A stretch of DNA of 35,725 nt, from the IMG/VR virus record IMGVR_UViG_3300045988_127927, positions 1 to 35,725 of that record; one strand, written 5' to 3'. Below the pieces are notes generated by a model. It was not told the origin of the DNA. It searched no databases and was given only the letters and a program-made list of their open reading frames with translations. Below, one piece after another: positions 13,616 through 27,059 of this stretch (position 1 is the stretch's first letter; each line of letters begins with the position of its first letter). This DNA comes from a virus. The position numbers and the translations under genes are program-made.

Positions 13616-13870
13616 CTAGGTGAAGTTTTTCCGGTTAGCCTGTACTACGAATACGCGTGGCGTGAAGCCGTCGTATGTGGTTCGGTATCTGGGGTACCGG
13701 GTGCGACACAGCATCTCCACCATATCGCCGGTGAACTTAGTAGCAATGACACGGTACCGTTCTCCGGTCTCCGTTTCGTAGCTGGCTACCCATTCCGAGG
13801 CGGTGAAGCCAGGGTACCGCGCGGCGACCGCACCGGCGTACTCATAGCCGCGCTCTTCGAGGTCAAGCAT
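13616..13870 (-). CDS. hypothetical protein (84 aa)
   Basis: Last gene of the leftward operon. Its ATG overlaps the upstream stop (ATGCTTGA). Confidence 0.6.
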   Translation of the reverse strand: MLDLEERGYEYAGAVAARYPGFTASEWVASYETETGERYRVIATKFTGDMVEMLCRTRYPRYRTTYDGFTPRVFVVQANRKNFT

Positions 13871-14255
13871 TATACGCCCCCAGTCCTAGCGCCTTTTCGA
13901 GCGTGTCGAGGTCTTCGAGCAGGCCGGGCAGCTTGTAACCCTTATTGAGCTGATATCCCAAATCAAGCAATTTCACGATTACGGTTATTTGCAGGCCGTG
14001 CGGATTATGCTGTGTCTTTCGGATGAATCGCGCGGCGGCTTCGAGCGCGCCGGGCGTAGCGGCGGGCGCGGCCTCTAAGTGCAACTCTAGGCACCGGCGG
14101 GCTTTGCGAATGTCTTCCGCGCCGCCTTTCTTTTTGCATCGCCATACGTATTTTATGGCCGCGCCTAGGAAATAGGGCGCTTCCATGATGAGCGGTTCGA
14201 GGGCTAACCCCTGAATCTTGCCATAGTGCGTCGGGTTGATCGGGTCGTTAGTCAT
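13863..14255 (-). CDS. DUF3310-family protein
   Basis: INPTHYGK ... LGAAIKYVWRCKKKGGAEDIRKARRCLE matches the DUF3310 signature. The ATG at 14255 is preceded by GAAAGGGAA; the track start at 14279 is a TTG extension. Confidence 0.75.
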   Translation of the reverse strand: MTNDPINPTHYGKIQGLALEPLIMEAPYFLGAAIKYVWRCKKKGGAEDIRKARRCLELHLEAAPAATPGALEAAARFIRKTQHNPHGLQITVIVKLLDLGYQLNKGYKLPGLLEDLDTLEKALGLGAYNA

Positions 14256-14790
14256 TGCAGGTTTCCCTTTCGAGTTCAAGCAGGAAAGTGCGAGCGTTTA
14301 GCGCCTTGAGCTGGATATAGGGCGGCTGGGTGGTATCGGTGAGAATTGCGGTGAGCCGGTCAATAGTTGCCGTGTACGGGCTTTCAGTCTTGACCGGCGC
14401 AGGCTTTGCCTTAGCCGTCTTAGCGGGCTTTACCGGGGCGGGTGCCAGGTACGCGGCGGTGAGCATCTTTACGGTGCTATCTACCGCCTTACGCGCCTTG
14501 ATGCGACCCGGCGCACGGGATGCCTTGAGAAATTCCAGCGCCTCCGCATAGGTGAAATGCCAGGCCGCGCTAGTAATCTTGATGCCCGCGCTACCTACGG
14601 CGTTAGGCGGGTAGTTGAACTTTTCGCCGGTGCCCGGGTGGTTAGCGAGGTACGAGTTTAGGGCTGCACCGGGTGCCTTGATGCCCGCCGCTTGTAGCAG
14701 TGCAAACGCGCGAATCCAGATTACGCCGTCATCTTCGACGTAAAAGGTCACGGGCTTGGTGTTGATGGTTTCGCAGTGAAGACGGGGCAT
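14248..14790 (-). CDS. hypothetical protein (180 aa), possibly DNA-binding, with Ala/Pro/Lys-rich linker
   Basis: ORF in the leftward operon with a low-complexity PAPVKPAKTAKAKPAPVK linker. No motif recognised. Confidence 0.6.
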   Translation of the reverse strand: MPRLHCETINTKPVTFYVEDDGVIWIRAFALLQAAGIKAPGAALNSYLANHPGTGEKFNYPPNAVGSAGIKITSAAWHFTYAEALEFLKASRAPGRIKARKAVDSTVKMLTAAYLAPAPVKPAKTAKAKPAPVKTESPYTATIDRLTAILTDTTQPPYIQLKALNARTFLLELERETCND

Positions 14791-14792
14791 GA

Positions 14793-15221
14793 TTAGCGCT
14801 TCCTTTCATTGTAGATTTGGGTTAGGTGGATGTGTACGCCGGGCGCGTCGCCGTACTCTTTGACCGCTTCTAGCTTGTTGCATCGCGCGTCATCTTCGAT
14901 AATGCCGCCGCTGGTAAGCGAGTCAAAGACCGCGCGGGTGAGCTTGTCAATGTCCGGTTTTACCGCGTGTATAGGGCCTAGCGTGCCTTGGAATAGCGCG
15001 CCGCTCTTAGGCTCTGTGAACACGAACCGTAGCGAGGCTTGGAACGCTCCGACGATTAGCGGCGCTCCGACCGCCTGGCTGGTCTTGAGGTGGTGCTTTC
15101 GCATGGTTTCGCGCCATTCTTTTGTTTTGGGGTTTGCTTCGACGGCGCGCCCCCGGTAGACGGTCTTTGATCCTTGCGGCACGGGACCAGGTTTACGGGC
15201 TATGAATGTTTTGTAGTGCAT
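14793..15221 (-). CDS. rusA: RusA-like Holliday junction resolvase
   Basis: KPDIDKLTRAVFDSLTSGGIIEDDARC matches the RusA catalytic Asp-rich block. RBS GAAAGG lies upstream. Confidence 0.8.
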   Translation of the reverse strand: MHYKTFIARKPGPVPQGSKTVYRGRAVEANPKTKEWRETMRKHHLKTSQAVGAPLIVGAFQASLRFVFTEPKSGALFQGTLGPIHAVKPDIDKLTRAVFDSLTSGGIIEDDARCNKLEAVKEYGDAPGVHIHLTQIYNERKR

Positions 15222-15242
15222 GTTCTACCTTTCGACATTTAT

Positions 15243-15272
15243 ACTATAAACCTATCTATGGGGTGAACACAA
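15243..15272 (-). promoter_or_regulatory. promoter copy P1 (leftward): TTGTGT-18 bp-TATAGT
   Basis: The minus strand reads ccTTGTGTtcaccccatagatagGTTTATAGTATAAATGtcgaaaggtagaacATG. This is near-identical to the four rightward copies. Confidence 0.7.
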
Positions 15273-15395
15273 GGCTAGACACTGTGAGTATAGTCACTCT
15301 TGCATAATGAACCTATATGCCCCTATATATGGTAGAATTGAAGTACAAGCTAGCAGTGATGTAACATTTCTTGTTTCCTTAGTTTGTTTGGGTTC

Positions 15396-15438
15396 AAAAA
15401 AAATACCCCCTTGATGGTGATTCGAGGGGGTATTTTTG
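15396..15438. terminator. orphan bidirectional terminator hairpin inside the divergent control region
   Basis: A8-TACCCCC ... 15-nt loop ... GGGGGTA-T5. The minus strand gives the hairpin followed by T8. Confidence 0.6.
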
Positions 15439-15455: not shown

Positions 15456-15488
15456 CAACCCCTGCCAAAAAAGGCACCCCTACCAAAA
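15456..15488 (+). repeat. two direct repeats CA(A)CCCCTrCCAAAA plus a third CCAAAAA tract at 15442
   Basis: gcaacccctgccaaaaaagg and gcacccctaccaaaata, read directly. Confidence 0.6.
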
Positions 15489-15502
15489 TATACCTAGACA
15501 CT

Positions 15503-15560
15503 TTTTACTAGGGGGGGAGGGTTATTTTACTAGGGGGGGTAGGGTTATTTTACTAGGGTA
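15503..15560 (+). repeat. 2.6 tandem copies of the 22/23-bp iteron-like repeat TTTTACTAGGGGGGG(T)AGGGTTA
   Basis: Copies at 15503-15524, 15525-15547 and 15548-15560 (partial). Confidence 0.9.
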
Positions 15561-15610
15561 AATAGAAGTAATTAAATAGAAGTTAAATAAATAGAAGTAA
15601 TTAAATCGAA
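15560..15610 (+). repeat. four tandem copies of the AT-rich 14-15-bp repeat AAATAGAAGTAATT
   Basis: Reads aaatagaagtaatt / aaatagaagttaaat / aaatagaagtaatt / aaatcgaagac. Confidence 0.9.
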
Positions 15611-15710: not shown

Positions 15711-16619
15711 ATGTCCATCACTGCAATTCTGGCAGCTGGCTATGTGACTCACAGCCCCGCCGGTGAACAGCTGAAAGCTTCTAGCCTCTCGACGTTGAAG
15801 GCGCTTGCTTTCTGTACCGGCGAACGCTCTAACGTTTGCTACCCGTCTATGCGTACCTTGCAGGAGATGACCGGGCACACCGCTAAGACGATTCGCGCCG
15901 CCCTGGACACTCTCGAAGAAGTCGGTTTCATCACCCGTAACCACCGCGTAGGAACCTCTAATGCCTACACCTTGCAGATTGACACTATGCGTTCCACTCA
16001 CCGCCGCCGCCGCTGGACTGAAACCCGTGACTCTGGCAACCCCTACGCGGGCGACCCTAACGCCGTAACCGTAGTAGACGAAATCCCCATCGAGGAACAG
16101 CCGGTTAAGCGTAGCGACTTCACAGAAGCCCTGGTAGAGGAAACTACCGCGCCCGCGCCGGTACAGACCGAGCTAATCCCCGCCTCCCCTGTCAAGAAGA
16201 CCAAGAAGCGCAGCACTACCACCACCGCCGCGCTTGATGAAGATTTCGACGAATTCTACAAGCACGCGTACCCGCGCAAAATGGAGCCGTTGAAGGCGCG
16301 CCGTGCATTTGAGAAGGCTGTGAAGAACGGCGCAGACCCGCGCGAAATTATCGAAGGCGCGCGCCGGTTCGCCGCCGCTACCGCCGCTAAGGGTAAAACG
16401 TATATCCCATACCCGGCTTCGTGGCTAAACGCGGGCGGCTGGATGAATGAGGCGGGCGATATTGCCCCGGTAGAACCTACCCCGTGGCAGAAGAAGACCG
16501 CGCGCCTTGTGCAGTCTATGCAGGCCGCCGCCGTGGTGAATAACGCGCCCGCGCTAACCGGCGTAGCACCCGCTACCGCTCCCGCCGAACCCCTGGCTAT
16601 CGAGCCTGGCTACATCTAA
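15711..16619 (+). CDS. replication initiation / replisome-organiser-like protein with N-terminal winged HTH
   Basis: LKALAFCTGERSNVCYPSMRTLQEMTGHTAKTIRAALDTLEEVGFI is HTH_36-like. The C-terminal block FYKHAYPRK..KARRAFEKAV...YIPYPASWLNAGGW is typical of phage replication organiser proteins. The gene is adjacent to iteron-like repeats. Confidence 0.7.
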   Translation: MSITAILAAGYVTHSPAGEQLKASSLSTLKALAFCTGERSNVCYPSMRTLQEMTGHTAKTIRAALDTLEEVGFITRNHRVGTSNAYTLQIDTMRSTHRRRRWTETRDSGNPYAGDPNAVTVVDEIPIEEQPVKRSDFTEALVEETTAPAPVQTELIPASPVKKTKKRSTTTTAALDEDFDEFYKHAYPRKMEPLKARRAFEKAVKNGADPREIIEGARRFAAATAAKGKTYIPYPASWLNAGGWMNEAGDIAPVEPTPWQKKTARLVQSMQAAAVVNNAPALTGVAPATAPAEPLAIEPGYI

Positions 16620-16630
16620 GGAGCGGCGAC

Positions 16631-17086
16631 ATGAATAAGCAGGAATGCGCAACGTTCTACGCACAGGCGGCAAAGGTTGATAGCCGCCTCCCTGATCGTG
16701 AATTTGATGAGTTCGACGCGTGGGAAATGCTTCTAGCGGATATTCCCCCTAAGTTCGCGCCTATGATTTTCCGTGAGATTTACCGCCGCGTTCAGGTTCA
16801 GCAGCTACAGCCGGGGCATATTGTCGAGGCGTGGGAAACCGTTCGTAAGGCGGTGAACGCCGCTATTGCCCGGTGCCTGTCTTTCGAGAAGCGCACGCGC
16901 GAGCTGGACGTGTCAGACCGTGAAGATGCCACGAAATTTAACGAGATTGTGGAAGCGCATAACGCGGCTGTGGATTCGCTACCGGGTGAGGTAGCGGCGG
17001 CCAATGGGTTTACTCACAAGGAGCTGGTACCTGTACCGGGTGAACGTGTGCCCGCGCCCGCCCCGGCGTGGTTTAAGTCACTGTAA
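16631..17086 (+). CDS. hypothetical protein (151 aa)
   Basis: AAGGAG RBS and compact spacing. Confidence 0.65.
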   Translation: MNKQECATFYAQAAKVDSRLPDREFDEFDAWEMLLADIPPKFAPMIFREIYRRVQVQQLQPGHIVEAWETVRKAVNAAIARCLSFEKRTRELDVSDREDATKFNEIVEAHNAAVDSLPGEVAAANGFTHKELVPVPGERVPAPAPAWFKSL

Positions 17087-17103
17087 AAAAGTTAGATTCT
17101 GGC

Positions 17104-17161
17104 TTGCGTTGCGCCCCCTGAAAGGTTTATACTATAAATGTAAGGCAACGAAGACCTTACA
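17104..17161 (+). promoter_or_regulatory. promoter copy P2 (TTGCGT-18-TATACT) plus 5' leader hairpin
   Basis: -35 at 17104-17109, -10 at 17128-17133, hairpin TGTAAGG-9 nt-CCTTACA at 17139-17161, then AGAAACCCAAACCGAAAGGAA. Confidence 0.7.
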
Positions 17162-17188
17162 GAAACCCAAACCGAAAGGAAGCCAGAA

Positions 17189-17599
17189 ATGTTCGGCATC
17201 ACCCGCAATCCCGCAGACGAACGCTACATCACCGCAGACCTTGGTGGCGACACCACCGCCGTAAAGCTTCTGGTACGACCCGACTACATCGCAGGCACTC
17301 ATTACCTGATGATTGACCACAAGAGCGCCATGAAGCTGGCACACCCCAAGAACCCGGGCAAGTGGATCCAGGAACTCCGACAGGGACTACGGCAGCACAA
17401 CGGCGAGGCTCAGCTCTGGAGCACCACCCCCACCGCCGGAAAGGGCGCGCTAGTCACCGCCTGGAAGACCGAGGACGCAATTAACTATCTCGACCTTGAT
17501 AACGTGATCCGCGCTATCGAAGACCGCGCCCCCGCCTCGCACAAGCCTAACGCCGCTATCCTCCGTGACCTCAAGCGTGAGATTGTAGGCGGCATCTAA
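17189..17599 (+). CDS. hypothetical protein (136 aa), first gene of cassette P2
   Basis: The ATG lies 8 nt after GAAAGGAAG. Confidence 0.7.
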   Translation: MFGITRNPADERYITADLGGDTTAVKLLVRPDYIAGTHYLMIDHKSAMKLAHPKNPGKWIQELRQGLRQHNGEAQLWSTTPTAGKGALVTAWKTEDAINYLDLDNVIRAIEDRAPASHKPNAAILRDLKREIVGGI

Positions 17600-17624
17600 C
17601 CCCCGCCGGTTACCGGCAACCAAC

Positions 17625-17648
17625 GCCCCGCCCCTCACCGGGCGGGGC
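17625..17648 (+). terminator. GC hairpin GCCCCGCCC-6 nt-GGGCGGGGC (attenuator/terminator-like)
   Basis: 9-bp all-GC-rich stem. Same arms as the hairpins at 21467 and 23321. No U-tract. Confidence 0.5.
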
Positions 17649-17676
17649 ACACAAACCCCAAACCCGAAAGAAGGAC

Positions 17677-17889
17677 ATGATGAAGACACTCATCACCCGC
17701 TACCCGCGAACCATCGGGTACACCGTAATAGCAGCACTACAGCTAACCACATTTTTCGTGGCCATGCTGAATAACCGGCTAGACCCGGCGCACATCTCAA
17801 ACGTGCTTCTCTCCGTAATCGTCGTGTGCTGTGGCTTTGAAATTGACATGCTAAAGCTTGAGAAGAAGGATACCCGCCGTGAAAATTAA
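17677..17889 (+). CDS. small membrane protein (70 aa, two TM)
   Basis: Hydrophobic segments YTVIAALQLTTFFVAML and VLLSVIVVCCGF. RBS GAAAGAAGGA. Confidence 0.65.
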   Translation: MMKTLITRYPRTIGYTVIAALQLTTFFVAMLNNRLDPAHISNVLLSVIVVCCGFEIDMLKLEKKDTRREN

Positions 17890-18793
17890 CACTCTCATGC
17901 GCCGCGCCGTACCCGCGCCCGCTCCCGGCTCCGACGAATGGAAGCGCAAGATTACCGCCTCCAAGGTGGCATCTGTCGTTTGTAAAAGCCCGTGTACTTC
18001 CAAGTTTGCGCTACACGCTGAGATGACCGGCCGCTACGAGGCAGACCCGATTAACCAGGCGGTATTGGAGGCCGGTAATATTCTGGAACCGGCTGTAGCG
18101 GGTTGGTTTCAGCTGCACAACCCCGACGTAGAAGTGCGTGAGTGCAAGAAGCGCAACACTCCCGTATGGTGGGTATCGCGCGATAGTGAAGACTTTGCCG
18201 CTACCCCCGACCGTATCCTAGTAGACCGTGAGACCGGCGAGGTCACCGCGCTACTGGAAATCAAGACCGCGCGCGTCGCCTCCGAATGGGGCGAAGAAGG
18301 TACCGACGAAATCCCCGAGCACTACCGCCTACAAGCGCTTTGGCAGATGAAATGTACCGGCGTAAAGACCGTTATTTTTGCTGTGCTACATGCCGGGCTG
18401 AGGTTCGCTACATACCGCGTCGAGTGGGACGCGGCGGCGGTTGATGAGCTTACGGCGGCGGCGACCGATTTTATGGACGCGGTACGCACCGGGCAAACCC
18501 CTGACTATCGCGAGGAACCCGGCGCGTTCTCGACCTACGAGGTGCTCCGCTATTATTTCCCTGAGTGCAACGGTGAAGCCGTGATGTTGAGTGATGACCT
18601 GGTCTACCGTACCCGCCGCGCTAAGCGCCTAAAGCGATTGGCCGCGCGTGCTGAGGATATCGTCAAGAATGAGCTAACCGCCGTTATGGGCAACGCGAGC
18701 GCGGGCGTTGATTACGCGAACCGTACCGTGGCGCGGCGCTCTCAGAGGAAGACCACTAAAGGTTATTCCCGCCCGTGGGTGACTATCGTCTAG
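17879..18793 (+). CDS. YqaJ/lambda-Exo-like recombination exonuclease (PD-(D/E)XK)
   Basis: GSDEWKRKITASKVASV, AGNILEP and ATPDRILVD...ALLEIKTAR fit the YqaJ viral recombinase family. The start is uncertain: GTG 17879 after GAAGAAGGA, or ATG 17897. Confidence 0.8.
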   Translation: MKINTLMRRAVPAPAPGSDEWKRKITASKVASVVCKSPCTSKFALHAEMTGRYEADPINQAVLEAGNILEPAVAGWFQLHNPDVEVRECKKRNTPVWWVSRDSEDFAATPDRILVDRETGEVTALLEIKTARVASEWGEEGTDEIPEHYRLQALWQMKCTGVKTVIFAVLHAGLRFATYRVEWDAAAVDELTAAATDFMDAVRTGQTPDYREEPGAFSTYEVLRYYFPECNGEAVMLSDDLVYRTRRAKRLKRLAARAEDIVKNELTAVMGNASAGVDYANRTVARRSQRKTTKGYSRPWVTIV

Positions 18794-18842
18794 GCGGCTG
18801 TAGCGGCGCTGGAAAATTTTCTAAATTTTTTCCGGTTTGGGC

Positions 18843-18912
18843 TTGTTTCCCCTCATAAATAGATTTATACTATAAATGTAAGGAAAACAAAGGAACCACC
18901 GGAAACCTTACA
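18843..18912 (+). promoter_or_regulatory. promoter copy P3 (TTGTTT-17-TATACT) plus 5' leader hairpin
   Basis: -35 at 18843-18848, -10 at 18866-18871, hairpin TGTAAGG-22 nt-CCTTACA at 18877-18912. The upstream AT-rich block gctggaaaattttctaaatttt is identical to that of P5. Confidence 0.7.
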
Positions 18913-18937
18913 ACCCAAACCGAAAGGAAACGAAATC

Positions 18938-19309
18938 ATGGAACTCACCGCTAAGGACTTCACCGCACAGCTGGCCGCTAAGGGTTACACCCCCGGTATC
19001 GACTTCGACGTTGATAACGGCGACGAACCGCACACCGTGAAGCTCACTGGCGCGATCACCTTTAACGGCGCAGATGGTTTTATGGACTTCCGCAACGCAG
19101 AGGAATACTACGGCATCACCTGTGCAGAGTATGAAGACCTCGCGTTCTTCTCCAAGACCTACCCGCTTACCGAGGCACAGATTACCGACATCGAAGAAGG
19201 CGGCGAACCCGGCAACGCAGAACAGGAAGAAAAGTTCTTCGACGCATGGCGTGCAGCTCTCGACGGTATCGGTATCGACCTGAACGACATTCCGGTTTCC
19301 AGCCGCTAA
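18938..19309 (+). CDS. highly acidic protein (123 aa), first gene of cassette P3
   Basis: By my count about 26 D/E against about 8 K/R. Strong RBS GAAAGGAAA. Lies between the exonuclease and RecT genes. Confidence 0.75.
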   Translation: MELTAKDFTAQLAAKGYTPGIDFDVDNGDEPHTVKLTGAITFNGADGFMDFRNAEEYYGITCAEYEDLAFFSKTYPLTEAQITDIEEGGEPGNAEQEEKFFDAWRAALDGIGIDLNDIPVSSR

Positions 19310-19336
19310 GCAACGCACATAAGCACCGATAGACCC

Positions 19337-19377
19337 GCCGGGCGGCGGACTCTTCCGAATACCCGCCGCCGCCCGGC
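19337..19377 (+). terminator. GC hairpin (12-bp stem GCCGGGCGGCGG / CCGCCGCCCGGC, 17-nt loop) followed by ATTT
   Basis: Read directly. Located between the acidic gene and recT. Confidence 0.5.
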
Positions 19378-19406
19378 ATTTACCACCACCGAAAGGAACC
19401 TACACC

Positions 19407-20225
19407 GTGGGCACTGAAATTCAGCAATTCACAGGCACCGCTCTACAGGTAAAGAATGATTTTGTAGATCCCATCAAGAACGCGATTACCGGCGCGTTAC
19501 CGCTATTCATGCGTGAAGACTCCGAGGCCTGGATTAGGGGCGCAATTCTGGAGGTTAGCAAGACTCCGCAGCTTGTCCAGTACGCCAAAAACAATTTTCC
19601 AGCATTTGCAGGCACGCTAACCCGTGTCGCCGCGCTGGGTTTACCGCTCAACCGTGACATGGTGTACGTGCTCCCCTTTGCATCGAAACAGGGGATGCAG
19701 GCCAACGTTATCATGGGTTGGCGCGGTGAGCTTGAACTCATTTATCGCGCGGGCAACGTCGAGACCGTCCACCATGAAGAAATCTTTGAGAATGACGGCT
19801 ACGAATGGAAGGACGGCGCCCCCCGCCTTATCGCTCCCGCCCCGGAAGGGCAGCGCGGCAAAATCAAGCACGCCGTAGCATGGGCTGTCTTGAAGAGCGG
19901 CAAAATCAGCCAATACGCGGTTGTGAGTGCCGACCGCATCGCCGCCGCCAAGAAAGCATCACGCGGCTCTAACTCCCCGTCTAGCCCCTGGGTACAGCAC
20001 GAGGTAGCAATGTGGCGCAAAACGGCAATTCATGAGCTGGCGAACTTCGTAGATTCAAGCGTAGAAGAGTGCCGACCGGAACGCCTGGAAGCCATGAAGA
20101 CCCGCGCGGCTCTCGCTTTGGACGTGGAGCGCGAAAAGACCGCGCGCATGGCAGAGGAAAACAGGGCTATGGAACTCAAGATTAAGCTAATGGAACTGGA
20201 ACAGACTAAGAAGGAAGGGGCATAA
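19407..20225 (+). CDS. recT: RecT-family single-strand annealing protein
   Basis: LPLNRDMVYVLPF, ANVIMGWRGELELIYRAGNVETVHHEEIFENDGYEW and the SPW..H...M..KTA block are RecT-like. GTG start after GAAAGGAA. Confidence 0.85.
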   Translation: MGTEIQQFTGTALQVKNDFVDPIKNAITGALPLFMREDSEAWIRGAILEVSKTPQLVQYAKNNFPAFAGTLTRVAALGLPLNRDMVYVLPFASKQGMQANVIMGWRGELELIYRAGNVETVHHEEIFENDGYEWKDGAPRLIAPAPEGQRGKIKHAVAWAVLKSGKISQYAVVSADRIAAAKKASRGSNSPSSPWVQHEVAMWRKTAIHELANFVDSSVEECRPERLEAMKTRAALALDVEREKTARMAEENRAMELKIKLMELEQTKKEGA

Positions 20226-20226
20226 G

Positions 20227-20547
20227 ATGACCCTAAATGCAACCCGTACACACTACATTAACGAGTATGATTACTCACATATCCGCTGGCGCGGCTTCGT
20301 AAAGCGCCTCGCCCTCCGCGCAGCATCTCTAGCCGATTCGCGCGGCGTGCTGAACATTGGGCGTGACAAGTTTTTTAAGGATACTCTAGGCGACGAATAC
20401 AACCCCCGCTACATCTCGCACATCATCACTGACTGTAACCGCATCGAGCGCGTGAGTTTTGCGACCATTGGGCACAGTGCGAGCGCCCGCCTGGTCATTG
20501 TCTTTGATGACGAAAAGATTAGTAAGAGCATGGAAAAGAAGGGCTAG
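20227..20547 (+). CDS. hypothetical protein (106 aa)
   Basis: The ATG lies 1 nt after the recT stop, with AAGGAAGGGG upstream. Confidence 0.65.
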   Translation: MTLNATRTHYINEYDYSHIRWRGFVKRLALRAASLADSRGVLNIGRDKFFKDTLGDEYNPRYISHIITDCNRIERVSFATIGHSASARLVIVFDDEKISKSMEKKG

Positions 20548-20550
20548 AAC

Positions 20551-21099
20551 ATGTCTTCTACCGTAACCGTACTAGGAAATATTGGGGCGGACGCAGAGCG
20601 ACGCGAGACGCAGAACGGCACCCCGTACCTGACTTTCACCGTTGCGGATTCACGCTCTAAATGGGACGCGGCCGCCGGTAAGTATGTCCCGCTAAATACG
20701 ACGTGGCGACGCGTAACCACCTTTAAGGGGTTGGACTATTTGCCCGATCAGCTTGTCAGGGGTGCGACCGTCTACGTATCCGGTAGCGAGGAATTGCGCA
20801 CCTGGGACAAAGAGGACGGGACGAAGGGTTACAGCCTGGATGTTACGGCGCATGTGGTGAAGGTGGTATCAAAGTCCACCGATAGCGGGGCACCCGCGCA
20901 GGTTCAGACTAGCCCGGTTGCCGCGTACCCGGCGAACACCGCCGCCCCGGTTCAGCAGCAGGGATACGCACAGCAGGCGCAGCCTATGCAGGGCGGTTAT
21001 GCACAGCCCGCCGCCGCCGCGCCGCCCGCCGGTTACCAAGCCGCCGCTAACGCATCGAGCGGATGGGGTGGATACGATAACGGGGCGACCCCGTTCTAG
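20551..21099 (+). CDS. ssb: single-stranded DNA-binding protein
   Basis: OB-fold N-terminus VTVLGNIGADAERRETQNGTPYLTFTVA, a Gly/Gln/Ala/Pro-rich linker and a C-terminal ...ATPF tail. Confidence 0.9.
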   Translation: MSSTVTVLGNIGADAERRETQNGTPYLTFTVADSRSKWDAAAGKYVPLNTTWRRVTTFKGLDYLPDQLVRGATVYVSGSEELRTWDKEDGTKGYSLDVTAHVVKVVSKSTDSGAPAQVQTSPVAAYPANTAAPVQQQGYAQQAQPMQGGYAQPAAAAPPAGYQAAANASSGWGGYDNGATPF

Positions 21100-21111
21100 C
21101 CCTAGCCCGCT

Positions 21112-21139
21112 AACCCCCGGTGAGTAATCGCCGGGGGTT
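21112..21139 (+). terminator. hairpin AACCCCCGG-10 nt-CCGGGGGTT after ssb
   Basis: 9-bp stem read directly, followed by TGG (weak U-tract). Confidence 0.5.
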
Positions 21140-21189
21140 TGGCGTACCCGGCGCGGGAAAAATTTTTTTGAAAAATCTTTGATTCTGGC

Positions 21190-21245
21190 TTGCTTTCCAC
21201 CCCACACAAGGTTTATACTATAAATGTAAGGCAAAGAGCCTTACA
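21190..21245 (+). promoter_or_regulatory. promoter copy P4 (TTGCTT-18-TATACT) plus 5' leader hairpin
   Basis: -35 at 21190-21195, -10 at 21214-21219, hairpin TGTAAGGC-5 nt-GCCTTACA at 21225-21245. An AT-rich block lies upstream at 21155-21180. Confidence 0.7.
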
Positions 21246-21271
21246 GAAACCCAAGCCGAAAGGAAACCCCA

Positions 21272-21451
21272 ATGTTGGAGTACTACGAAATTCAGGAATA
21301 CGTTACCGAGGTAGCAGCAGGTAACTACCCGTTCCGAGTAATCGACGCGGTAACCGCCGATATTTACGAACGCGGCGTAGCCGTCGAGATGGAAGACCTC
21401 AAGGCATACCCGCGAACCCGTGAACTTCTCAAGATTCACAACGCGGCCTAA
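21272..21451 (+). CDS. 59-aa acidic protein, first gene of cassette P4 (absent from the ORF track)
   Basis: ATG after CCGAAAGGAAACCCCA. Translation: MLEYYEIQEYVTEVAAGNYPFRVIDAVTADIYERGVAVEMEDLKAYPRTRELLKIHNAA. A gapless alignment gives 20/59 identities to the 23125 ORF. Confidence 0.75.
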   Translation: MLEYYEIQEYVTEVAAGNYPFRVIDAVTADIYERGVAVEMEDLKAYPRTRELLKIHNAA

Positions 21452-21466
21452 CAATCAACCAACTAA

Positions 21467-21489
21467 GCCCCGCCCTAACCGGGCGGGGC
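21467..21489 (+). terminator. GC hairpin GCCCCGCCC-5 nt-GGGCGGGGC
   Basis: Same arms as the hairpins at 17625 and 23321. Confidence 0.5.
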
Positions 21490-21503
21490 ACCCCTAGCAA
21501 ATC

Positions 21504-22079
21504 ATGGCAAATCAGTTTTACAAATCAGAAACATGCTCACAGTGCGGTAACCCCTGGGAAAAACCCGATCTGGTCAATTGCCGCCGGTGCAAACAGTGGG
21601 AACTCAAACGCGCCCGCACCCGCCGCAAAAAGGCAGAGAAAGCGGGTGAGCTAGAGCGCAAGCGCAAAAACAAGGAGTGGGCCGCAACCCATTGCTACAT
21701 TTGCGGTTCGCTTATGGATAATCCAGACCCCAAATGCTACCGGTGCCGCGAACGCATCAAGCGCCGCGAAAAATGGCTAGAACGCCGCGCCGAACGCATG
21801 AAACCGAACGACCTAAACAACCTAGAAGGCGTAAGGAAGTTCCTACAGGCGCGCCGCCGCCGCCTCAACCAAGACCCCCACACCCCCCCATCGAAGGAAT
21901 CGACACATGAAACACCCCATCACCGGGCGACCCCTAACCATCACCGCCGCCGCGCTCGCAACAGTACCGACCGGCTTTTTTCTCGCCGCGCTCATCACCG
22001 GCGGCGGCGTGAACATCGGCAGCTCTATTCTCACCCTCGCTACGTGGTGGGTGGGTGTGCTGATCGTGGCATTGTTTGA
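21504..22079 (+). CDS. zinc-ribbon protein (two CxxC...CxxC pairs), basic; 3' end uncertain
   Basis: Contains CSQCGNPW...CRRCKQW and CYICGSL...CYRCRERI. The last ~57 codons overlap the 21907 gene and read as low-complexity His/Arg sequence. A C7 tract lies at 21883-21889. Confidence 0.55.
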   Translation: MANQFYKSETCSQCGNPWEKPDLVNCRRCKQWELKRARTRRKKAEKAGELERKRKNKEWAATHCYICGSLMDNPDPKCYRCRERIKRREKWLERRAERMKPNDLNNLEGVRKFLQARRRRLNQDPHTPPSKESTHETPHHRATPNHHRRRARNSTDRLFSRRAHHRRRREHRQLYSHPRYVVGGCADRGIV

Positions 22080-22122
22080 GGCCAACCCGCGCGACGCGCG
22101 AACCAACCGAGAGGAACACTAA
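21907..22122 (+). CDS. small membrane protein (71 aa, two TM)
   Basis: ATG after CGAAGGAA. Hydrophobic segments LTITAAALATVPTGFFLAALI and ILTLATWWVGVLIVALF. Confidence 0.7.
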   Translation: MKHPITGRPLTITAAALATVPTGFFLAALITGGGVNIGSSILTLATWWVGVLIVALFEANPRDARTNREEH

Positions 22123-22124
22123 TC

Positions 22125-22763
22125 ATGCGTATTATCGAATTGGAAAAGTACCAAGCACCCGGCAAGCTCTGGCACATTGTCACTACCGAGGCGGTAGACA
22201 AGCTGCGCACCACGGCTATTATTTTCGCTGACACCCCGGCGAAAACCTACATTTCGCTTGTCGCCGCCGCTGAAATCGCAGGCGTAAGTGAAACCGGCGT
22301 ACGCGACTATCTCAAGAAGCACGGCGCGCGGCCTAAGCTATTCACCGTCCCGGCTAACGTCAATCGCACCGGACAGGCGCGAAAAATGGCGTTTATCGAC
22401 CCGCTTACCATGTTCCATATTCTCTTAGAGGTAGACCCGCGCGAACAGAGCGTTAGGGGTTGGTTCCATGACCTAACGCACTTCGACGGCGACGAAATCC
22501 CCAAATTCTGGGGCATGACGAATGTTCGAGAGGCGGCGATTATCGAAGATAAGGCGCGCGAAATCGAACTACTGGAAATTCCAGACTTTACCCCGCCCGC
22601 CCGCGTCGAGTTTGACGCTACCGGCGGAATCGAGCAGCTGAACCGCATCATCTCAGACCTACACGCCCCGTACCATGTACGAGTGAAGGCGCTACAGATT
22701 CAGCATGAGGTGAATCAGCTCGCTAATACCGTAGACAAGCTGAATGAAGGAAAGGACGCATAA
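22125..22763 (+). CDS. HTH-containing DNA-binding protein (212 aa)
   Basis: ISLVAAAEIAGVSETGVRDYLKKHG looks like a helix-turn-helix. The C-terminus is coiled coil. Confidence 0.6.
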   Translation: MRIIELEKYQAPGKLWHIVTTEAVDKLRTTAIIFADTPAKTYISLVAAAEIAGVSETGVRDYLKKHGARPKLFTVPANVNRTGQARKMAFIDPLTMFHILLEVDPREQSVRGWFHDLTHFDGDEIPKFWGMTNVREAAIIEDKAREIELLEIPDFTPPARVEFDATGGIEQLNRIISDLHAPYHVRVKALQIQHEVNQLANTVDKLNEGKDA

Positions 22764-22764
22764 A

Positions 22765-23007
22765 ATGCGCATGACTCGACAGATTATCAAGCTCTCAAGC
22801 TACCGCGTGAAGGGTGTAACTTTCGCCGTGGAGTTTGACTATGACAAGCCGGGTGACCGCCGCACTAAGATTGGGCAGGCGTTGAAGTCAATCATTGGTA
22901 TTCATGAGCTGAATTATCTGAGCAATCAGGCAATTAAGATTATGGGTAGCGGTGAATCCGCGCGTGAGGTGTGGAGCTATGAGGTGGTGGAGACTGAGGA
23001 TATTTAG
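22765..23007 (+). CDS. hypothetical protein (80 aa)
   Basis: The ATG at 22765 lies 8 nt after GAAGGAAAGGA. The track start at 22744 sits inside the upstream gene. Confidence 0.6.
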   Translation: MRMTRQIIKLSSYRVKGVTFAVEFDYDKPGDRRTKIGQALKSIIGIHELNYLSNQAIKIMGSGESAREVWSYEVVETEDI

Positions 23008-23040
23008 CTGGAAAATTTTCTAAATTTTCTTGGTTTTGGC

Positions 23041-23098
23041 TTGCTTTGCACACCCCAATAGGTTTATACTATAAATGTAAGGCAAAGGAGGTCTTACA
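23041..23098 (+). promoter_or_regulatory. promoter copy P5 (TTGCTT-18-TATACT) plus 5' leader hairpin
   Basis: -35 at 23041-23046, -10 at 23065-23070, hairpin TGTAAG(G)-loop-(T)CTTACA at 23076-23098. The palindrome GAAAATTTTC lies upstream at 23011-23020. Confidence 0.7.
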
Positions 23099-23124
23099 GA
23101 AACCCAAACCGAAAGGAGCTAGCA

Positions 23125-23304
23125 ATGCTGGCACGTCACGAAATTCTCGAATCCATCACCACCGCAGCATACGGCGAAATCTCGACCGCCGTTCTGGAAG
23201 CCGCGGCAACCGAGATTTGGGAAAATAACAGCTTCGAGACTATGGCAGATTTTGAAGCCTACGATAAGACCTGGGAAATCGTCGCAAAGCACGACGCTAA
23301 GTAA
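23125..23304 (+). CDS. 59-aa acidic protein, first gene of cassette P5 (absent from the ORF track); paralogue of 21272-21451
   Basis: ATG after CCGAAAGGAGCTAGCA. Translation: MLARHEILESITTAAYGEISTAVLEAAATEIWENNSFETMADFEAYDKTWEIVAKHDAK. Confidence 0.75.
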   Translation: MLARHEILESITTAAYGEISTAVLEAAATEIWENNSFETMADFEAYDKTWEIVAKHDAK

Positions 23305-23320
23305 CCCCTAACCACATAAC

Positions 23321-23347
23321 GCCCCGCCCGCTAACCCCGGGCGGGGC
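23321..23347 (+). terminator. GC hairpin GCCCCGCCCG-7 nt-CGGGCGGGGC
   Basis: Followed by CACCAAACCCCAAACCCGAAAGGAA, as after the 17625 hairpin. Confidence 0.5.
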
Positions 23348-23380
23348 ACCAAACCCCAAACCCGAAAGGAACAACACGAA

Positions 23381-23779
23381 ATGGCAATGTCTTACGCAGA
23401 AGCCAAAATCTGGAATGATGAACACCTCCCGATCTTGAACCGTATCGGTATCACAACGGGCGTACGAGATGACCGGTACGGTGACCCCGCCGGTGCATTT
23501 GTCGAAATTGTCTACACGGTACACGGCAGGCTTAAGCGCGCGGCTGATCTAATGTCAAACGACCATAGCGAATTTGCCCTAGCCGTCGCCGAACGTCTGA
23601 AAGAATTTGCGGGTATCGGCGGCAAATACGAGCAGCAGGCCGCCGCCGTAATCAACGCCCTAACCGAACTCGACCGTGTACACCGCATTACCGAACTAGA
23701 GAATGAGGCAGAAGAGCACGAGCGCGCCGCTAGTAAGGCGTACAAGAAGATTAAGGCTCTCATCTCATTCAAGCCCTAA
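23381..23779 (+). CDS. hypothetical protein (132 aa) with C-terminal coiled coil
   Basis: RBS CGAAAGGAA. Confidence 0.65.
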   Translation: MAMSYAEAKIWNDEHLPILNRIGITTGVRDDRYGDPAGAFVEIVYTVHGRLKRAADLMSNDHSEFALAVAERLKEFAGIGGKYEQQAAAVINALTELDRVHRITELENEAEEHERAASKAYKKIKALISFKP

Positions 23780-23793
23780 CCAAGGAACAGAAC

Positions 23794-24273
23794 ATGCTAG
23801 AGGAAATCCTAAACGCGTTCGACCCGCACGCGTTTTTCACCACCGCCCCGCTCTGGACAGTATTCACGCTACCCGGCGCAGCAATGGGCATATTCACCAC
23901 GATTAGCGCACTAGTGATAATGTGCCTAGTCTACCCATACAAGGACGCAGACCCCGATTACGAGTTTAGAGGCGTACTATGCTGTGTAATCGCAGGTATA
24001 GGCGGCGCCCTGGTCTTCGTAACCGACGTTATCGCCCTGGTCATGTTCTGGGACGGCGCGTTACACCCGGCGCTCACCGCTCACGGCGTAAACGGTAATA
24101 GCGCCCGTATCCTATCCGACATGATCGCGATCATCACTAATACGGCGGCTTTTACTGCACCCATCGCCGTGTGCGTAGAAATTTTTCGAGCTTTGGAGCA
24201 TCTAGAAGACCGCCGCGTTACCCGCCGTAGGTACCTGGAAGCCCGCGCCTTGGAGCGTGCAACCCGTGACTAA
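23794..24273 (+). CDS. integral membrane protein (159 aa, about four TM)
   Basis: Several 18-22-residue hydrophobic stretches and a basic C-terminus. Confidence 0.65.
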   Translation: MLEEILNAFDPHAFFTTAPLWTVFTLPGAAMGIFTTISALVIMCLVYPYKDADPDYEFRGVLCCVIAGIGGALVFVTDVIALVMFWDGALHPALTAHGVNGNSARILSDMIAIITNTAAFTAPIAVCVEIFRALEHLEDRRVTRRRYLEARALERATRD

Positions 24274-24439
24274 ACGCCGTGACCGCAACCGTGCCGCGCG
24301 CCGCCGTAAACGCGTCTACATCTGGCACTGGTCAGAAGACGAAGACCCGCTATACGCCATAGCCGCGCAAATCGTCCAAGAAATCTACACCACAAGGAGC
24401 ACACCCCATGAAACGCTACGAGCGCGAGGTGTTCGCTAA
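24266..24439 (+). CDS. small basic protein (57 aa), tentative
   Basis: GTG within GTGACTAA, overlapping the upstream stop and lying after GGAGCG. Third codon positions are C-rich like neighbouring early genes. N-terminus is KRRDRNRAARRRKR. Confidence 0.45.
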   Translation: MTKRRDRNRAARRRKRVYIWHWSEDEDPLYAIAAQIVQEIYTTRSTPHETLRARGVR

Positions 24440-24854
24440 CGTACCCATCATGAGCACCTATAACCAATACACCGATAAAAACGACTTTCCGAACCACGGA
24501 ATAATTTACAGGGCACTACCCGACCAAATCCTACGAGCCGCTTTCATGCTCACATGGAAAGCCGGTGTGAGCTGGAAAGAAGACAGAAACAGGACGATTC
24601 GAGACGCACTAGCGGCTATCGACGCAGCTAAAGCGGTGTACCCGTCCATGCGCCTTAAGAAACCGCTAGCAAGTCAAGATGCTCAGCTGGATTATTTGCT
24701 AATGATCGTAGAAGGTATCAATAACGCGGGCGACTTCAAGAGTAAGCACCAATACGGCGCATTGAAAGCTATTCTGTCCGCACAGAAGACCAACGATATT
24801 GCCCACCTGGGCGTTGCAGGCATGAACCTGTACGGCTGGGCAGGTGAGCAATGA
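24408..24854 (+). CDS. hypothetical protein (148 aa)
   Basis: AAGGAG RBS 7 nt upstream. Confidence 0.65.
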   Translation: MKRYEREVFANVPIMSTYNQYTDKNDFPNHGIIYRALPDQILRAAFMLTWKAGVSWKEDRNRTIRDALAAIDAAKAVYPSMRLKKPLASQDAQLDYLLMIVEGINNAGDFKSKHQYGALKAILSAQKTNDIAHLGVAGMNLYGWAGEQ

Positions 24855-25051
24855 CTAGCGCCGTATGCGCTCGCTGTGGATGCCCGGCCAATGAGTACAC
24901 CTCATCATGCAGGGCGTGCTATATGCGCCGCCGCTACCGGGCATCTGTACCACAGAAACCCGCCGTTACCCGGCAACCTGTCTACACCGGAAAGGTTGCC
25001 GGGCGGGTACCCGCCCTAAACTCACTGATACCACCACGAAAGGAACACTAA
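24851..25051 (+). CDS. small zinc-finger protein (66 aa)
   Basis: Contains CARCGCP...SSCRACY. ATGA overlap with the upstream gene. Confidence 0.55.
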   Translation: MTSAVCARCGCPANEYTSSCRACYMRRRYRASVPQKPAVTRQPVYTGKVAGRVPALNSLIPPRKEH

Positions 25052-25054
25052 AAA

Positions 25055-25120
25055 ATGGACTTGCTAGGAATCTTGCTAGTCGCCTGGTTTATCCGGATGA
25101 TCTGGGGCATGAACAAGTAG
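25055..25120 (+). CDS. 21-aa hydrophobic micropeptide ORF (MDLLGILLVAWFIRMIWGMNK), tentative
   Basis: ATG after CCACGAAAGGAACACTAAAAA. The same CGAAAGGAAC RBS context precedes recT. Confidence 0.35.
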   Translation: MDLLGILLVAWFIRMIWGMNK

Positions 25121-25131
25121 GAGAACACCCC

Positions 25132-25440
25132 ATGACCGAATATTCACGCGACAAACTCTACGTGCAGCTTGACGCACTCCGAACCACCCTAGAAGAAGCA
25201 GTAGACGCAGGCGATATCTACGAGACCCCCTCCCACGTCTACCCCGGCGGCAACCGTAAGCCCGCATATCTCAACCTGAAAACCCCGGAAGAAACCGTAA
25301 CCATCACCTCAGAAAATGACGTAATCAACATCGAAGATCTGGAAGGCGTGATTATCGGTAACGGCAAGTGGCACATCATGCACGCGCTGGAACCCGGCGG
25401 CAAAGCCCCGCTAGGCGGCTTCATTCTTGAACGCATCTAA
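25132..25440 (+). CDS. hypothetical protein (102 aa)
   Basis: ATG after GTAGGAGAACACCCC. The track ORF from 24907 is an unlikely upstream extension overlapping two genes. Confidence 0.6.
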   Translation: MTEYSRDKLYVQLDALRTTLEEAVDAGDIYETPSHVYPGGNRKPAYLNLKTPEETVTITSENDVINIEDLEGVIIGNGKWHIMHALEPGGKAPLGGFILERI

Positions 25441-25454
25441 GAAGGAGATGACTA

Positions 25455-26069
25455 ATGACCGACACCACGCTAAAGCTAACCGAAGCGTTCAATAGGCACA
25501 ACAGTCTATACAACGCCTTGCTAGGCGGCATGAAGACCCTGACCACCTCCCACGCTGAGGAAATCGCCATCACCCTAGACGCGCGGCACGCCCGGGCACT
25601 AACCCGAATCCTAAACGCTGCACCACTCGACGGCGACCCACTCAACACCCGCGTAAACGTCGAAACTGACACGGACGCATGGGAAACCGACGCATCAAAA
25701 ATTAACCGGTATCTCGAAGAGAACGAATTAGACCCGACGCTAAATAATGTTGCGGCCGCGTTTATCTACGCAGAAACCGAATTCCCCCGCCTGGACATTG
25801 AACTACAGGGAAAGGAGTACCGTGTAACACGCATCACCAAGGTTGAGCAGTCTACAAGCGACGGCGGCGGGCGCGGTAGCGCCTCCACAAAAATTAAGGT
25901 GGACGCGCCCGGCTGGAACGAATACCCCGTATTTGAGTTTTGGGGAACCGAACTATACGACGTAGAAGGCGAAGAGTGCAAGAAGGCTAAAGCCCGCGCG
26001 CTTAGCTATTACCACCCCGATAACGTAGCAGCTTTAGGCGGTATCCTCATGGAGCACATTACCGACTAA
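25455..26069 (+). CDS. hypothetical protein (204 aa)
   Basis: GAAGGAG RBS. Confidence 0.65.
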   Translation: MTDTTLKLTEAFNRHNSLYNALLGGMKTLTTSHAEEIAITLDARHARALTRILNAAPLDGDPLNTRVNVETDTDAWETDASKINRYLEENELDPTLNNVAAAFIYAETEFPRLDIELQGKEYRVTRITKVEQSTSDGGGRGSASTKIKVDAPGWNEYPVFEFWGTELYDVEGEECKKAKARALSYYHPDNVAALGGILMEHITD

Positions 26070-26135
26070 CCACACCACAACCACGCGGGGCGACGGACAC
26101 AACACCGCCGCCCCGCACAATCCGAAAGGCACACC

Positions 26136-26393
26136 ATGCGAAAACTCGACGCAATAAAAGCCATGCTACTAAGCGCAACCATATACGGCGCGCTAACAAA
26201 TCCCGAGAAGCACGAATCTCAAAAAGACTACACACTAGTCCTAGACATGGACGGCGAAAACCCGCTAGGTGAACCCGCCGTAACACTCACCATGAACCTA
26301 AAATCCCTGAGCTACGTAGCTGGACTACTCACCGCCGGGCGACTCGCAACCGAGGCAGCAGACGCACGAAAGAAGAAGCCATTCAATGACTAA
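26136..26393 (+). CDS. hypothetical protein (85 aa)
   Basis: RBS CGAAAGG. Confidence 0.6.
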   Translation: MRKLDAIKAMLLSATIYGALTNPEKHESQKDYTLVLDMDGENPLGEPAVTLTMNLKSLSYVAGLLTAGRLATEAADARKKKPFND

Positions 26394-26909: not shown

Positions 26910-27059
26910 CCCAATACGCTATAATGGATACGTAACATTCATACCGAATGATTACGGCGTTGTTTCGGATTCTAGACGAAACCCACACAGGATATTCAAA
27001 TAGCCCCGGCGACCGAAAACAGTAGGAGCCGGGGCTAACCCTTACCCACGGTAGGAGCC

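Follow-up and report, generated by a model that had tools for sequence, protein, structure and literature searches.

A hairpin at the predicted start of four early phage transcripts is conserved within an uncultured clade and may protect the first cistron

What is the role of a hairpin that a phage repeats at the head of four separate early transcripts, with arms that hardly change and loops that change freely? In this work, we address this question for IMG/VR virus record IMGVR_UViG_3300045988_127927, analysed at its full length of 35,725 nt (hereafter the window), in which four plus-strand promoters, P2–P5, each carry the stem TGTAAGG(C)/(G)CCTTACA followed by a shared leader. An earlier note on this DNA had described these stems and proposed that they either protect the mRNA from decay that begins at its 5′ end or serve as a docking site for an RNA-binding regulator. 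Our own interpretation, which we hold tentatively and at a little under even chance, is that the element would act as a 5′-terminal protective stem-loop that brackets the first cistron of four early mRNAs together with a GC hairpin at its 3′ side. Such a device would be of a familiar kind, but its form here, well conserved and specific to one phage clade, had not been described before.

One cassette in four copies

The hairpin belongs to a cassette of about 110 nt that occurs four times on the plus strand, each copy with the same hairpin and leader. In order, the cassette comprises an A/T-rich tract, GGCTTG with the −35 box TTGCnT, a copy-specific spacer of 17–18 nt, GGTT, the −10 box TATACT, ATAAA, TGTAAGG(C), the variable loop, (G)CCTTACA, a C/A-rich leader free of U, the Shine–Dalgarno (SD) sequence GAAAGGA, a further 7–9 nt and the ATG. 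The 18-mer TATACTATAAATGTAAGG occurs four times in the window (0.01 expected), as does the leader sequence AACCCAARCCGAAAGGA (0.15 expected), and of the eight TGTAAGG sites that the genome contains, seven fall inside cassettes. Lone 7-bp stems are commonplace in the window (about 135 nested or overlapping entries in a stem scan), so the significance of these four lies in their identical arms, at an identical offset from an identical promoter. A position-weight scan of the genome finds only five such promoters, P2–P5 and the leftward P1 (scores of 65 for P5, the best, 55 for P2 and 38 for P1), and neither the window nor its relatives contain a free-standing copy of the hairpin, which is always fused to the promoter.

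At P2, the promoter core (17104–17133, with an A/T-rich tract upstream) has its −35 box TTGCGT at 17104–17109 and its −10 box TATACT at 17128–17133, separated by 18 nt, and the hairpin (17139–17161) pairs the 7 bp of TGTAAGG/CCTTACA around a 9-nt loop, CAACGAAGA; an alternative stem gains an eighth pair, C–G, with a bulged A. The C/A-rich, U-free leader (17162–17191) places the SD GAAAGGA at 17174–17180 ahead of the ATG at 17189, where a first open reading frame (ORF) of 136 amino acids begins (17189–17599). P3 (core 18843–18871; −35 box TTGTTT at 18843–18848, 17-nt spacer, −10 box TATACT at 18866–18871) carries a hairpin of the long class (18877–18912), whose 7-bp outer helix TGTAAGG/CCTTACA encloses a 22-nt loop made of an A-rich internal loop, an inner helix (G18892–G18893/C18899–C18900) and the apical loop AACCA. 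Its leader (18913–18940, ACCCAAACC; SD at 18922–18928, ATG at 18938) opens an acidic ORF of 123 amino acids (18938–19309) with an isoelectric point (pI) of 4.05.

The promoter cores of P4 (21190–21219) and P5 (23041–23070) share the −35 box TTGCTT, an 18-nt spacer and the −10 box TATACT (21214–21219 and 23065–23070, respectively). The P4 hairpin (21225–21245) pairs TGTAAGGC with GCCTTACA over 8 bp around the 5-nt loop AAAGA, and that of P5 (23076–23098) pairs TGTAAGGC with GTCTTACA over 8 bp, one of them G·U, around the 7-nt loop AAAGGAG. The leader of P4 (21246–21274; SD at 21258–21264, ATG at 21272) precedes an acidic ORF of 59 amino acids (21272–21451), and that of P5 (23099–23127; SD at 23111–23117, ATG at 23125) precedes its paralogue of the same length (23125–23304); the similarity between these two copies runs from the leader into the coding region.

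The earlier note had located all four stems correctly, together with the loop lengths of P2, P3 and P4 and the single G–U pair of P5. Several details change: the P5 loop has 7 nt rather than about 9, the P3 spacer has 17 nt rather than 18, and the stem, which had been placed directly after the −10 box, is separated from it by five bases (ATAAA). The common leader given as AGAAACCCAArCCGAAAGGA is indeed present in four copies, except that P3 lacks its GAA and reads CCTTACA-ACCCAAACCGAAAGGA.

A predicted transcript start at the base of the stem

P1, the leftward copy of the promoter (15219–15275, minus strand; −35 box TTGTGT at 15272–15267, −10 box TATAGT at 15248–15243, ATG at 15221–15219), reads GGTTTATAGTATAAATGTCGAAAGGTAGAACATG and has the promoter without the hairpin, as had been noted before. 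Its sequence offers a check, from within the same genome, on where +1 lies. P1 retains the same promoter up to ATAAATGT and its SD begins 3 nt beyond this point, so transcription should start no further along than the stem's first base. With ATAAA between TATACT and TGTAAGG, the G of the stem lies 7 nt past the −10 box, and this G (G17140, G18878, G21226 and G23077 at P2–P5, respectively) is the predicted +1, an assignment that rests on established promoter geometry. The T–A pair just outside it is the most variable of the helix (six U·G cells and four gaps in the alignment described below), as expected if its T, which precedes the G, is not transcribed. The earlier placement of the stem at or near +1 thus stands as a prediction, with the stem beginning where a TAnnnT −10 box puts +1 and with the SD of P1 as a bound.

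P1 lacks both the 5′ hairpin and a GC hairpin after its first ORF, and may gain the same protection from an SD that lies almost at its 5′ end. Two other promoter assignments were rejected: TATAAA as the −10 box would require a 23-nt spacer, and CTTACA as the −35 box of a downstream promoter is followed by no −10 box. We also observed that the −10 region, TTTATA-C/G-TATAAA, is a perfect palindrome of 13 bp (17125–17138 and its equivalents at the other four promoters); on the plus strand of the genome, P1 has the same TTTATACTATAAA as P2–P5, hence the TATAGT that it shows in its own sense.

The cassette is conserved across a clade of related phages

Relatives were collected with three pattern scans, two based on the promoter core and one on the leader, in which the 3′ arm was left unspecified and the 5′ arm was unspecified past its first two bases, and with an additional RecT-based scan, whose loci are all 92–97% identical. 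Together, these scans yielded roughly 20 related phage contigs, metagenomic genomes of 35–37 kb. Anchoring on the leader only, which is blind to the −10 box, gave 72 distinct promoter cassettes, whose hairpin segments fall into 58 distinct sequences. The −10 hexamers of the cassettes are TATACT (47), TACACT (10), TATAGT (10), TATGCT (2), TACGCT (1), TACAAT (1) and TGTACT (1), so that TAnnnT is kept in 71 of the 72, TGTACT being the exception; a fixed TAnnnT with a free middle is the signature of a genuine sigma-A/sigma-70 −10 element. The promoter spacer, in turn, is conserved only to about 40–60% across cassettes.

The pattern of fixed arms and free loops, previously described from four copies, holds over all 72 cassettes, and the hairpin invariably begins 6 nt past the −10 box. 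The 5′ arm is TGTAAGG in 68 of them, and the 3′ arm is mostly CCTTACA, with at least 10 variants. Some of these remain compatible with G·U pairing (CCTTACG, CCTTATA, CCTTGCA and TCTTACA), and others (CCATACA, CCCTACA and CCTACA) introduce a mismatch or a bulge at the central A–U pair. The distance between the arms is 5, 7, 9 or 22 nt in the window and 5–25 nt in the relatives, and the length of the enclosed loop is bimodal across cassettes, with 5–7 or 21–25 nt. Long loops follow a common plan: an A-rich 5′ strand of 8–9 nt (rArAACArA), an inner helix of 2–4 bp, an apical loop of 4–6 nt and a 3′ strand of 4–5 nt ((GG)AAA). Versions of the inner helix are GG/CC, GGG/CCC, GGG/CCU, GAC/GUC and GAGG/CCUC, and the loop type is tied only loosely to the downstream gene, the GAGG/CCTC loop preceding three different first ORFs.

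The element has no match in Rfam, either at the gathering threshold or in a permissive scan. Four temperate prophage loci with terminases 62–65% identical to that of the window (L228–L231), which carry integrase and HTH_3 repressor-like genes and tightly packed early genes, contain no cassette, no repeated promoter and no match to the covariance model; as these loci, the nearest of the more distant relatives that were examined, lack it, the cassette seems to have arisen within the apparently virulent clade. A candidate set of prophage copies elsewhere was dropped. There, the promoter pattern searched in one genome per species gave four single matches, in Taylorbacteria, Bacteroidetes and Desulfovibrionaceae metagenome-assembled genomes and in a Lachnospiraceae genome, none of them followed by the TGTAAGG hairpin or the leader, and we read these as chance.

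Folding and covariation favour an RNA structure

A covariance model built on 27 copies of the long class finds exactly the four sites in the window, all on the plus strand, and 126 matches (73 distinct) in the relatives. On the alignment made with this model, the outer helix is 98% paired; the one-sided changes that still pair are all G·U or U·G (12 cells), and 10 further cells are unpaired. In the inner helix, compensatory changes are found at two of three pairs (GC to AU in 8 cells, GC to CG in 10), counts that come from an alignment fitted to the covariance model and from closely related sequences, where the inner-helix types may represent three or four independent events. Pairing falls to 21–57% when the partners are slid by 1–3 columns. 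When RNAalifold was given a plain MAFFT alignment, it found the outer helix but not the inner helices, which do not line up from one loop class to another; the covariance-model alignment was used for this reason.

Folded as primary transcripts that start at the G, the four predicted leaders form the stem with a probability of at least 0.99, as the earlier note would have it, while leaving the SD about 70% unpaired. In 57 of the 58 distinct hairpin segments, the minimum-free-energy fold pairs at least five of the six bases with which the predicted transcript opens. As the spacing between arms varies five-fold, the inner helix covaries and the wobbles pair on the plus strand only, the evidence favours an element that behaves as a plus-strand RNA structure rather than as a DNA operator. 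Pairing between the 5′ loop of P3 (CGGAA) and the loop of its downstream GC hairpin (UUCCG, 5 nt) was considered and dropped, as it is lost in relatives with other loop types.

The hairpin is half of a larger conserved unit

Each hairpin promoter leads to a single short ORF (136, 123, 59 and 59 amino acids), the last three of which, those of P3–P5, are very acidic (pI 4.0–4.6). These acidic products have no match in Pfam or PHROGs and are candidate host-takeover, anti-defence or DNA-mimic proteins.

A hairpin with a stem of G and C only, and without a U-tract, follows 15–28 nt past the stop codon of the first ORF in the window and up to 32 nt past it in most relatives, and each of these is followed by another C/A-rich leader with an SD for the next gene. 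In the P2 unit it lies at 17625–17648 (GCCCCGCCC-CTCACC-GGGCGGGGC), starts 25 nt past the stop and is followed by the leader ACACAAACCCCAAACCCGAAAGAAGGA; in the P3 unit it lies at 19338–19376 (CCGGGCGGCGG...CCGCCGCCCGG), again with no U-tract, ahead of the SD of recT. The P4 unit has GCCCCGCCC-TAACC-GGGCGGGGC at 21467–21489 and the P5 unit GCCCCGCCCG-CTAACCC-CGGGCGGGGC at 23321–23347, followed by ACCAAACCCCAAACCCGAAAGGA; all are on the plus strand. Such a hairpin is present at all four sites of the window and in about 40 of 45 cassettes of the relatives, likewise with fixed arms and free loops, and one relative (L168) has a compensatory change in its stem (GCCCCTCCC/GGGAGGGGC). Further strong U-less hairpins of G and C only are found at 26085–26116 and 27001–27037.

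The hairpins that look like intrinsic terminators of this phage are of a different make. Two long perfect hairpins with A-runs and T-runs on both flanks, at 13565–13604 and 15399–15437, look like bidirectional terminators; they sit where the convergent late and leftward operons meet and between P1 and the putative origin, in the intergenic region. Because these carry U-tracts, the U-less GC hairpins are likelier to be stability or processing elements. The design of a hairpin, a U-free leader and an SD therefore recurs with two unrelated stems, which favours a generic structural role. What is new here, relative to the earlier note, is that the 5′ hairpin forms half of a conserved unit, which continues with one short ORF and a U-less GC hairpin and ends in the next leader.

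A possible protective bracket and its rivals

How might such a unit work? Host RNA polymerase would transcribe from four near-identical strong promoters of the sigma-A/sigma-70 type. With transcription beginning at the G of TGTAAGG, pairing would at once take up the six or seven bases at the front of the transcript, leaving no single-stranded 5′ end at which a pyrophosphohydrolase, RNase E or RNase J could enter. The hairpin would then give way to an unstructured, U-free, C/A-rich leader that exposes a strong SD, and the 5′ hairpin and the U-less GC hairpin would bracket the first ORF into a stable and heavily translated immediate-early message, with the downstream genes reached through read-through. 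The small acidic products of three of the four first ORFs fit host-takeover or anti-defence roles. Actinobacteria possess both RNase E and RNase J (see also PMC10641625). RppH and RNase E require single-stranded 5′ ends, hence the stabilisation of mRNA by 5′ structure (PMC3997798, its refs 92–95 and 109), and this requirement is the accepted explanation for stabilisation by the ompA, papA and aprE leaders (PMC3997798).

Several observations weigh against this interpretation. None of the seven outer-helix pairs has a compensatory double change among the 73 distinct sequences, and at least three independent changes (CCATACA, CCTACA and CCCTACA) disrupt the central A–U pair. The thermodynamics are modest, with a median of −7.2 kcal/mol; the z scores of the leaders against shuffled sequences range from −0.2 to −3.6 (the latter at P4), and the P3 leader, at −0.2, does no better than its shuffles. 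When 80 nt of upstream read-through sequence are included, the stems of P3 and P5 are predicted not to form. The model of a stabiliser does not account for the invariance of the 5′ arm beyond TGT: a purely structural cap should be freer to covary, and an invariant 5′ arm beside a diverged spacer means that something reads the sequence. Part of this near-invariance could come from a second role of the arm as the initially transcribed sequence of the promoter, of which TGT is common to P1. Between the two interpretations of the earlier note, protection from decay nonetheless appears better supported than regulator docking; it is an unproven and incomplete account, as it missed the paired 3′ hairpin and the constraint on sequence.

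Since the near-invariance of TGTAAGG remains beyond the model, we keep a sequence-specific reader as the main rival, unlikely as we judge it to be. The hairpin would then be a docking site for an RNA-binding factor of the phage or the host, recruited by the invariant base of the stem and the C/A-rich leader, and this factor could either make RNA polymerase read through the GC hairpins after the first ORFs, as in antitermination of the lambda-nut, put or LoaP kind, and so lead from immediate-early to delayed-early expression, or treat the four messages as a regulon and control their translation or decay together. This would explain why the 5′ arm and the stem base are held beyond the needs of pairing, and the succession of promoter, hairpin, short ORF, strong hairpin and then genes for recombination and replication resembles that of lambda immediate-early units and is kept in about 40 of 45 cassettes, with P1 lacking the 5′ and the post-ORF hairpin alike. 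Two clade-specific basic proteins with CxxC zinc-ribbon motifs, encoded at 21504–22079 (191 amino acids, 52 K+R, pI 10.8) and 24851–25051 (66 amino acids, pI 10.2), are possible nucleic-acid-binding regulators and could supply the factor, but they have no recognisable RNA-binding or antiterminator domain, and a search of 20 early proteins against Pfam and PHROGs for a trans-acting factor returned only YqaJ, RecT, HTH_36, HNH, TerS and a weak zinc ribbon. Moreover, the loops, which are the part that N-type proteins read, are free in sequence and length; there is no boxA-like element near the cassettes, and no N-, Q- or NusG-like protein was identified with Pfam or PHROGs; and the GC hairpins lack the U-tracts of the evident terminators and may not terminate. 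Docking sites need not be fixed at +1, as the hairpin is in all copies, and the internal genes have the same leader design behind a different, GC hairpin, pointing to a generic structural role. The strongest form of the idea, in which hairpin and leader are a cis-acting RNA signal through which a factor switches the four units from expression of the first ORF only to read-through of the GC hairpins, would amount to a novel processive antitermination or RNA-regulon system in a virulent phage of Rothia, an oral actinobacterium, and we regard it as quite improbable.

The remaining explanations fare worse. The element might have little function of its own and hitch-hike in a promoter-leader cassette that is homogenised by duplication or by recombination among co-infecting relatives, its conserved blocks being homology patches for module exchange. 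Such exchange is plausible in a clade that is tight and abundant (its terminases, clustered at 90% identity or above, form more than 70 clusters), where loop types are shuffled relative to downstream genes, as the GAGG/CCTC loop shows, and where the GC hairpins have the same fixed arms and free loops, which may reflect the recombination dynamics of the clade. The spacer inside the same cassette has diverged freely, however, so homogenisation does not extend to the whole cassette; the two arms have been kept, as has complementarity in three or four different inner helices, and the hairpin still forms in 57 of 58 distinct variants, all of which makes passive carriage a poor bet. Still less probable is that the inverted repeat is a DNA operator, bound by a dimeric repressor of the phage or the host that shuts off or times the four early promoters. 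Two conserved half-sites do overlap the predicted start of four co-regulated promoters, the TGTAAGG sites are nearly confined to cassettes (seven of eight), and actinobacteriophages offer a precedent in invariant 7-bp inverted repeats thought to bind dimers, such as TGTTCGGNNNCCGAACA of Cluster O (PMC4351075). Against this, the half-sites are 5–22 nt apart within the genome and 5–25 nt apart across cassettes, whereas a fixed dimer calls for fixed spacing; a duplex operator would have no use for an inner helix that covaries; the tolerated changes are G·U wobbles, which are mismatches on the other strand at the DNA level; the 3′ half-site tolerates deletion and substitution of its central base; and searches of Pfam and PHROGs found no repressor or HTH regulator except a replication-initiator-like protein. 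On the plus strand, the stem is followed by AGAAACCC, with no U-tract that would make it an intrinsic terminator. On the minus strand, it is followed by TTTATAGTATAAA and could in principle terminate antisense transcription, and a consensus scan does flag the stems of P2 and P4; we give this next to no credence, as the surrounding genes are all on the plus strand, the T-run is interrupted, the plus-strand G·U pairs become A·C mismatches and the scan returns 22 hits compared with 22.2 in shuffled sequence.

Genome context and host

The first 55 bases of the window (1–55) recur exactly at its end (35671–35725, found as a k-mer overlap); given this exact recurrence, the window is probably a complete circular assembly of roughly 35,670 bp, around which the gene order would wrap. 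Its gene order is of the siphovirus type, with TerS at 27531 and TerL at 27886 followed by portal, capsid and tail genes and a lysis amidase at 12622. Among the tail genes is a tape-measure-like ORF of 1,496 amino acids (324–4814), within which we observed at least five tandem units with a period of 135 nt and 62–72% identity (2421–3235). A short leftward operon (13616–15221) contains RusA-like and DUF3310-like genes, and a long rightward early region (15711–27368) contains an HTH_36 replication-initiator-like gene, a YqaJ exonuclease, RecT, SSB and an HNH gene; the RusA, DUF3310 and SSB labels were derived from Pfam-annotated homologues. No integrase or repressor was seen in the window.

Direct repeats at 15483–15610, just upstream of the HTH_36 gene (15711–16619), comprise three copies of TTTTACTAGGGGGGG(T)AGGGTTA and four of the AAATAGAAGT type, and look like origin iterons. 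The regions ahead of the late genes (26909–27060 and 27369–27530) have no promoter of the P1–P5 type. A TATAAT is found at 26921–26926, in the gap preceding the HNH gene, and the 160-bp gap before the small terminase gene (27369–27530) might hold a late promoter or a cos or pac region.

The terminase shares about 39% identity with its counterparts in Arthrobacter and Microbacterium phages; for the endolysin, the nearest named homologues belong to Rothia mucilaginosa (63%) and to an uncultured Rothia (57%). From these similarities and a G+C content of about 55%, the host is probably Rothia or a close relative. The terminase clusters mentioned above come from metagenomic contigs of 35–37 kb, and their number indicates that the clade is abundant in metagenomes. 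Neither megablast nor blastn against 50,697 GenBank phage records gave any match to the window. The clade is thus tight, abundant and uncultured, with no cultured relative.

Comparison with known systems

The 5′ stem-loop stabilisers of Escherichia coli (ompA, papA) and Bacillus subtilis (aprE) resemble the present element in having a short stem-loop within 0–2 nt of +1 (here, of the predicted +1), an open leader and a strong SD. They differ in that the sequence of the stem is unimportant there, whereas here the 5′ arm is near-invariant and the outer stem has no compensatory changes; in the setting, here a probable actinobacterial host with both RNase E and RNase J; and in that a single ORF lies here between the 5′ stem and a conserved GC hairpin on its 3′ side, with a function that is predicted. 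In phage T7, gene 10 and class III transcripts carry a 5′ stem-loop fused to a repeated, near-identical phage promoter, and the hairpin described here is likewise tied to a repeated phage promoter. The early mRNAs of T7 are bounded by hairpins processed by RNase III, and segmental stabilisation is known from the pufBA, papBA and malEFG-REP operons. In those cases, the first early cistron, often an anti-defence gene, is delimited by RNA structures and so accumulates above the downstream genes, as it would here, but the stems of 7–11 bp found here are too short for RNase III.

The lambda nut, HK022 put and LoaP leaders also have a promoter-proximal hairpin and a conserved linear element at the head of early units, with a short first gene and then a strong hairpin. 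The boxB loop of lambda is conserved and recognised, unlike the free loops here, and put requires two stem-loops. The downstream hairpins here have no U-tract. In the Cluster O palindrome, thought to bind a dimer, the spacer is fixed at 3 bp (PMC4351075); the arms here are variably spaced.

In form, the nearest parallel among actinobacteriophages lies in the SAS/ESAS elements of Cluster K mycobacteriophages and Cluster EF Microbacterium phages, where an over-conserved ribosome-binding-site motif is preceded by an inverted repeat (PMC3203893, PMC7302621). The repeat of ESAS has conserved arms, a variable spacer of 4–13 bp and a left arm better conserved than the right (PMC3203893, PMC7302621); its arms are 17 bp long and imperfect (PMC3203893), and the function of SAS/ESAS was still untested in 2025 (PMC12699233). 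Both they and the present element are found in actinobacteriophages and cover the ribosome-binding site of a subset of non-structural genes; here too, an inverted repeat with a 5–25-nt spacer and a better conserved left arm lies immediately upstream of the ribosome-binding motif, and the Cluster EF consensus GGGAAAGGACCCC contains GAAAGGA, as does the leader here (ACCCAAACCGAAAGGA, four copies). The arms, however, are 17 bp long there and 7–8 bp here, the copies number 11–19 per genome there and four here, the sequences are unrelated, and SAS/ESAS have not been reported at +1 or fused to a promoter at a fixed distance. A search of the window for the SAS consensus (GGGATAGGAGCCC, or GGGAAAGGACCCC of Cluster EF) gave one chance-level match with two mismatches (8596–8608, minus strand) and none at the leaders.

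If the protective reading is true, this clade of oral-actinobacterial phages builds its immediate-early messages from a compact standard part, composed of a strong promoter, a 5′ hairpin, a U-free leader, an ORF and a 3′ GC hairpin, and offers a natural design for mRNA stability in Actinobacteria, where the rules that RNase E and RNase J follow have yet to be fully established, as well as a ready expression cassette for Rothia and other Micrococcaceae. If antitermination or an RNA regulon were the answer instead, the element might serve as a model for what ESAS-type repeats do in actinobacteriophages. The role of SAS/ESAS has been open since 2011, and the formal likeness means that one set of reporters could inform both. 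By analogy, then, the element is closest in function to the 5′-terminal stem-loop stabilisers and, among actinobacteriophages, closest in form to SAS/ESAS.

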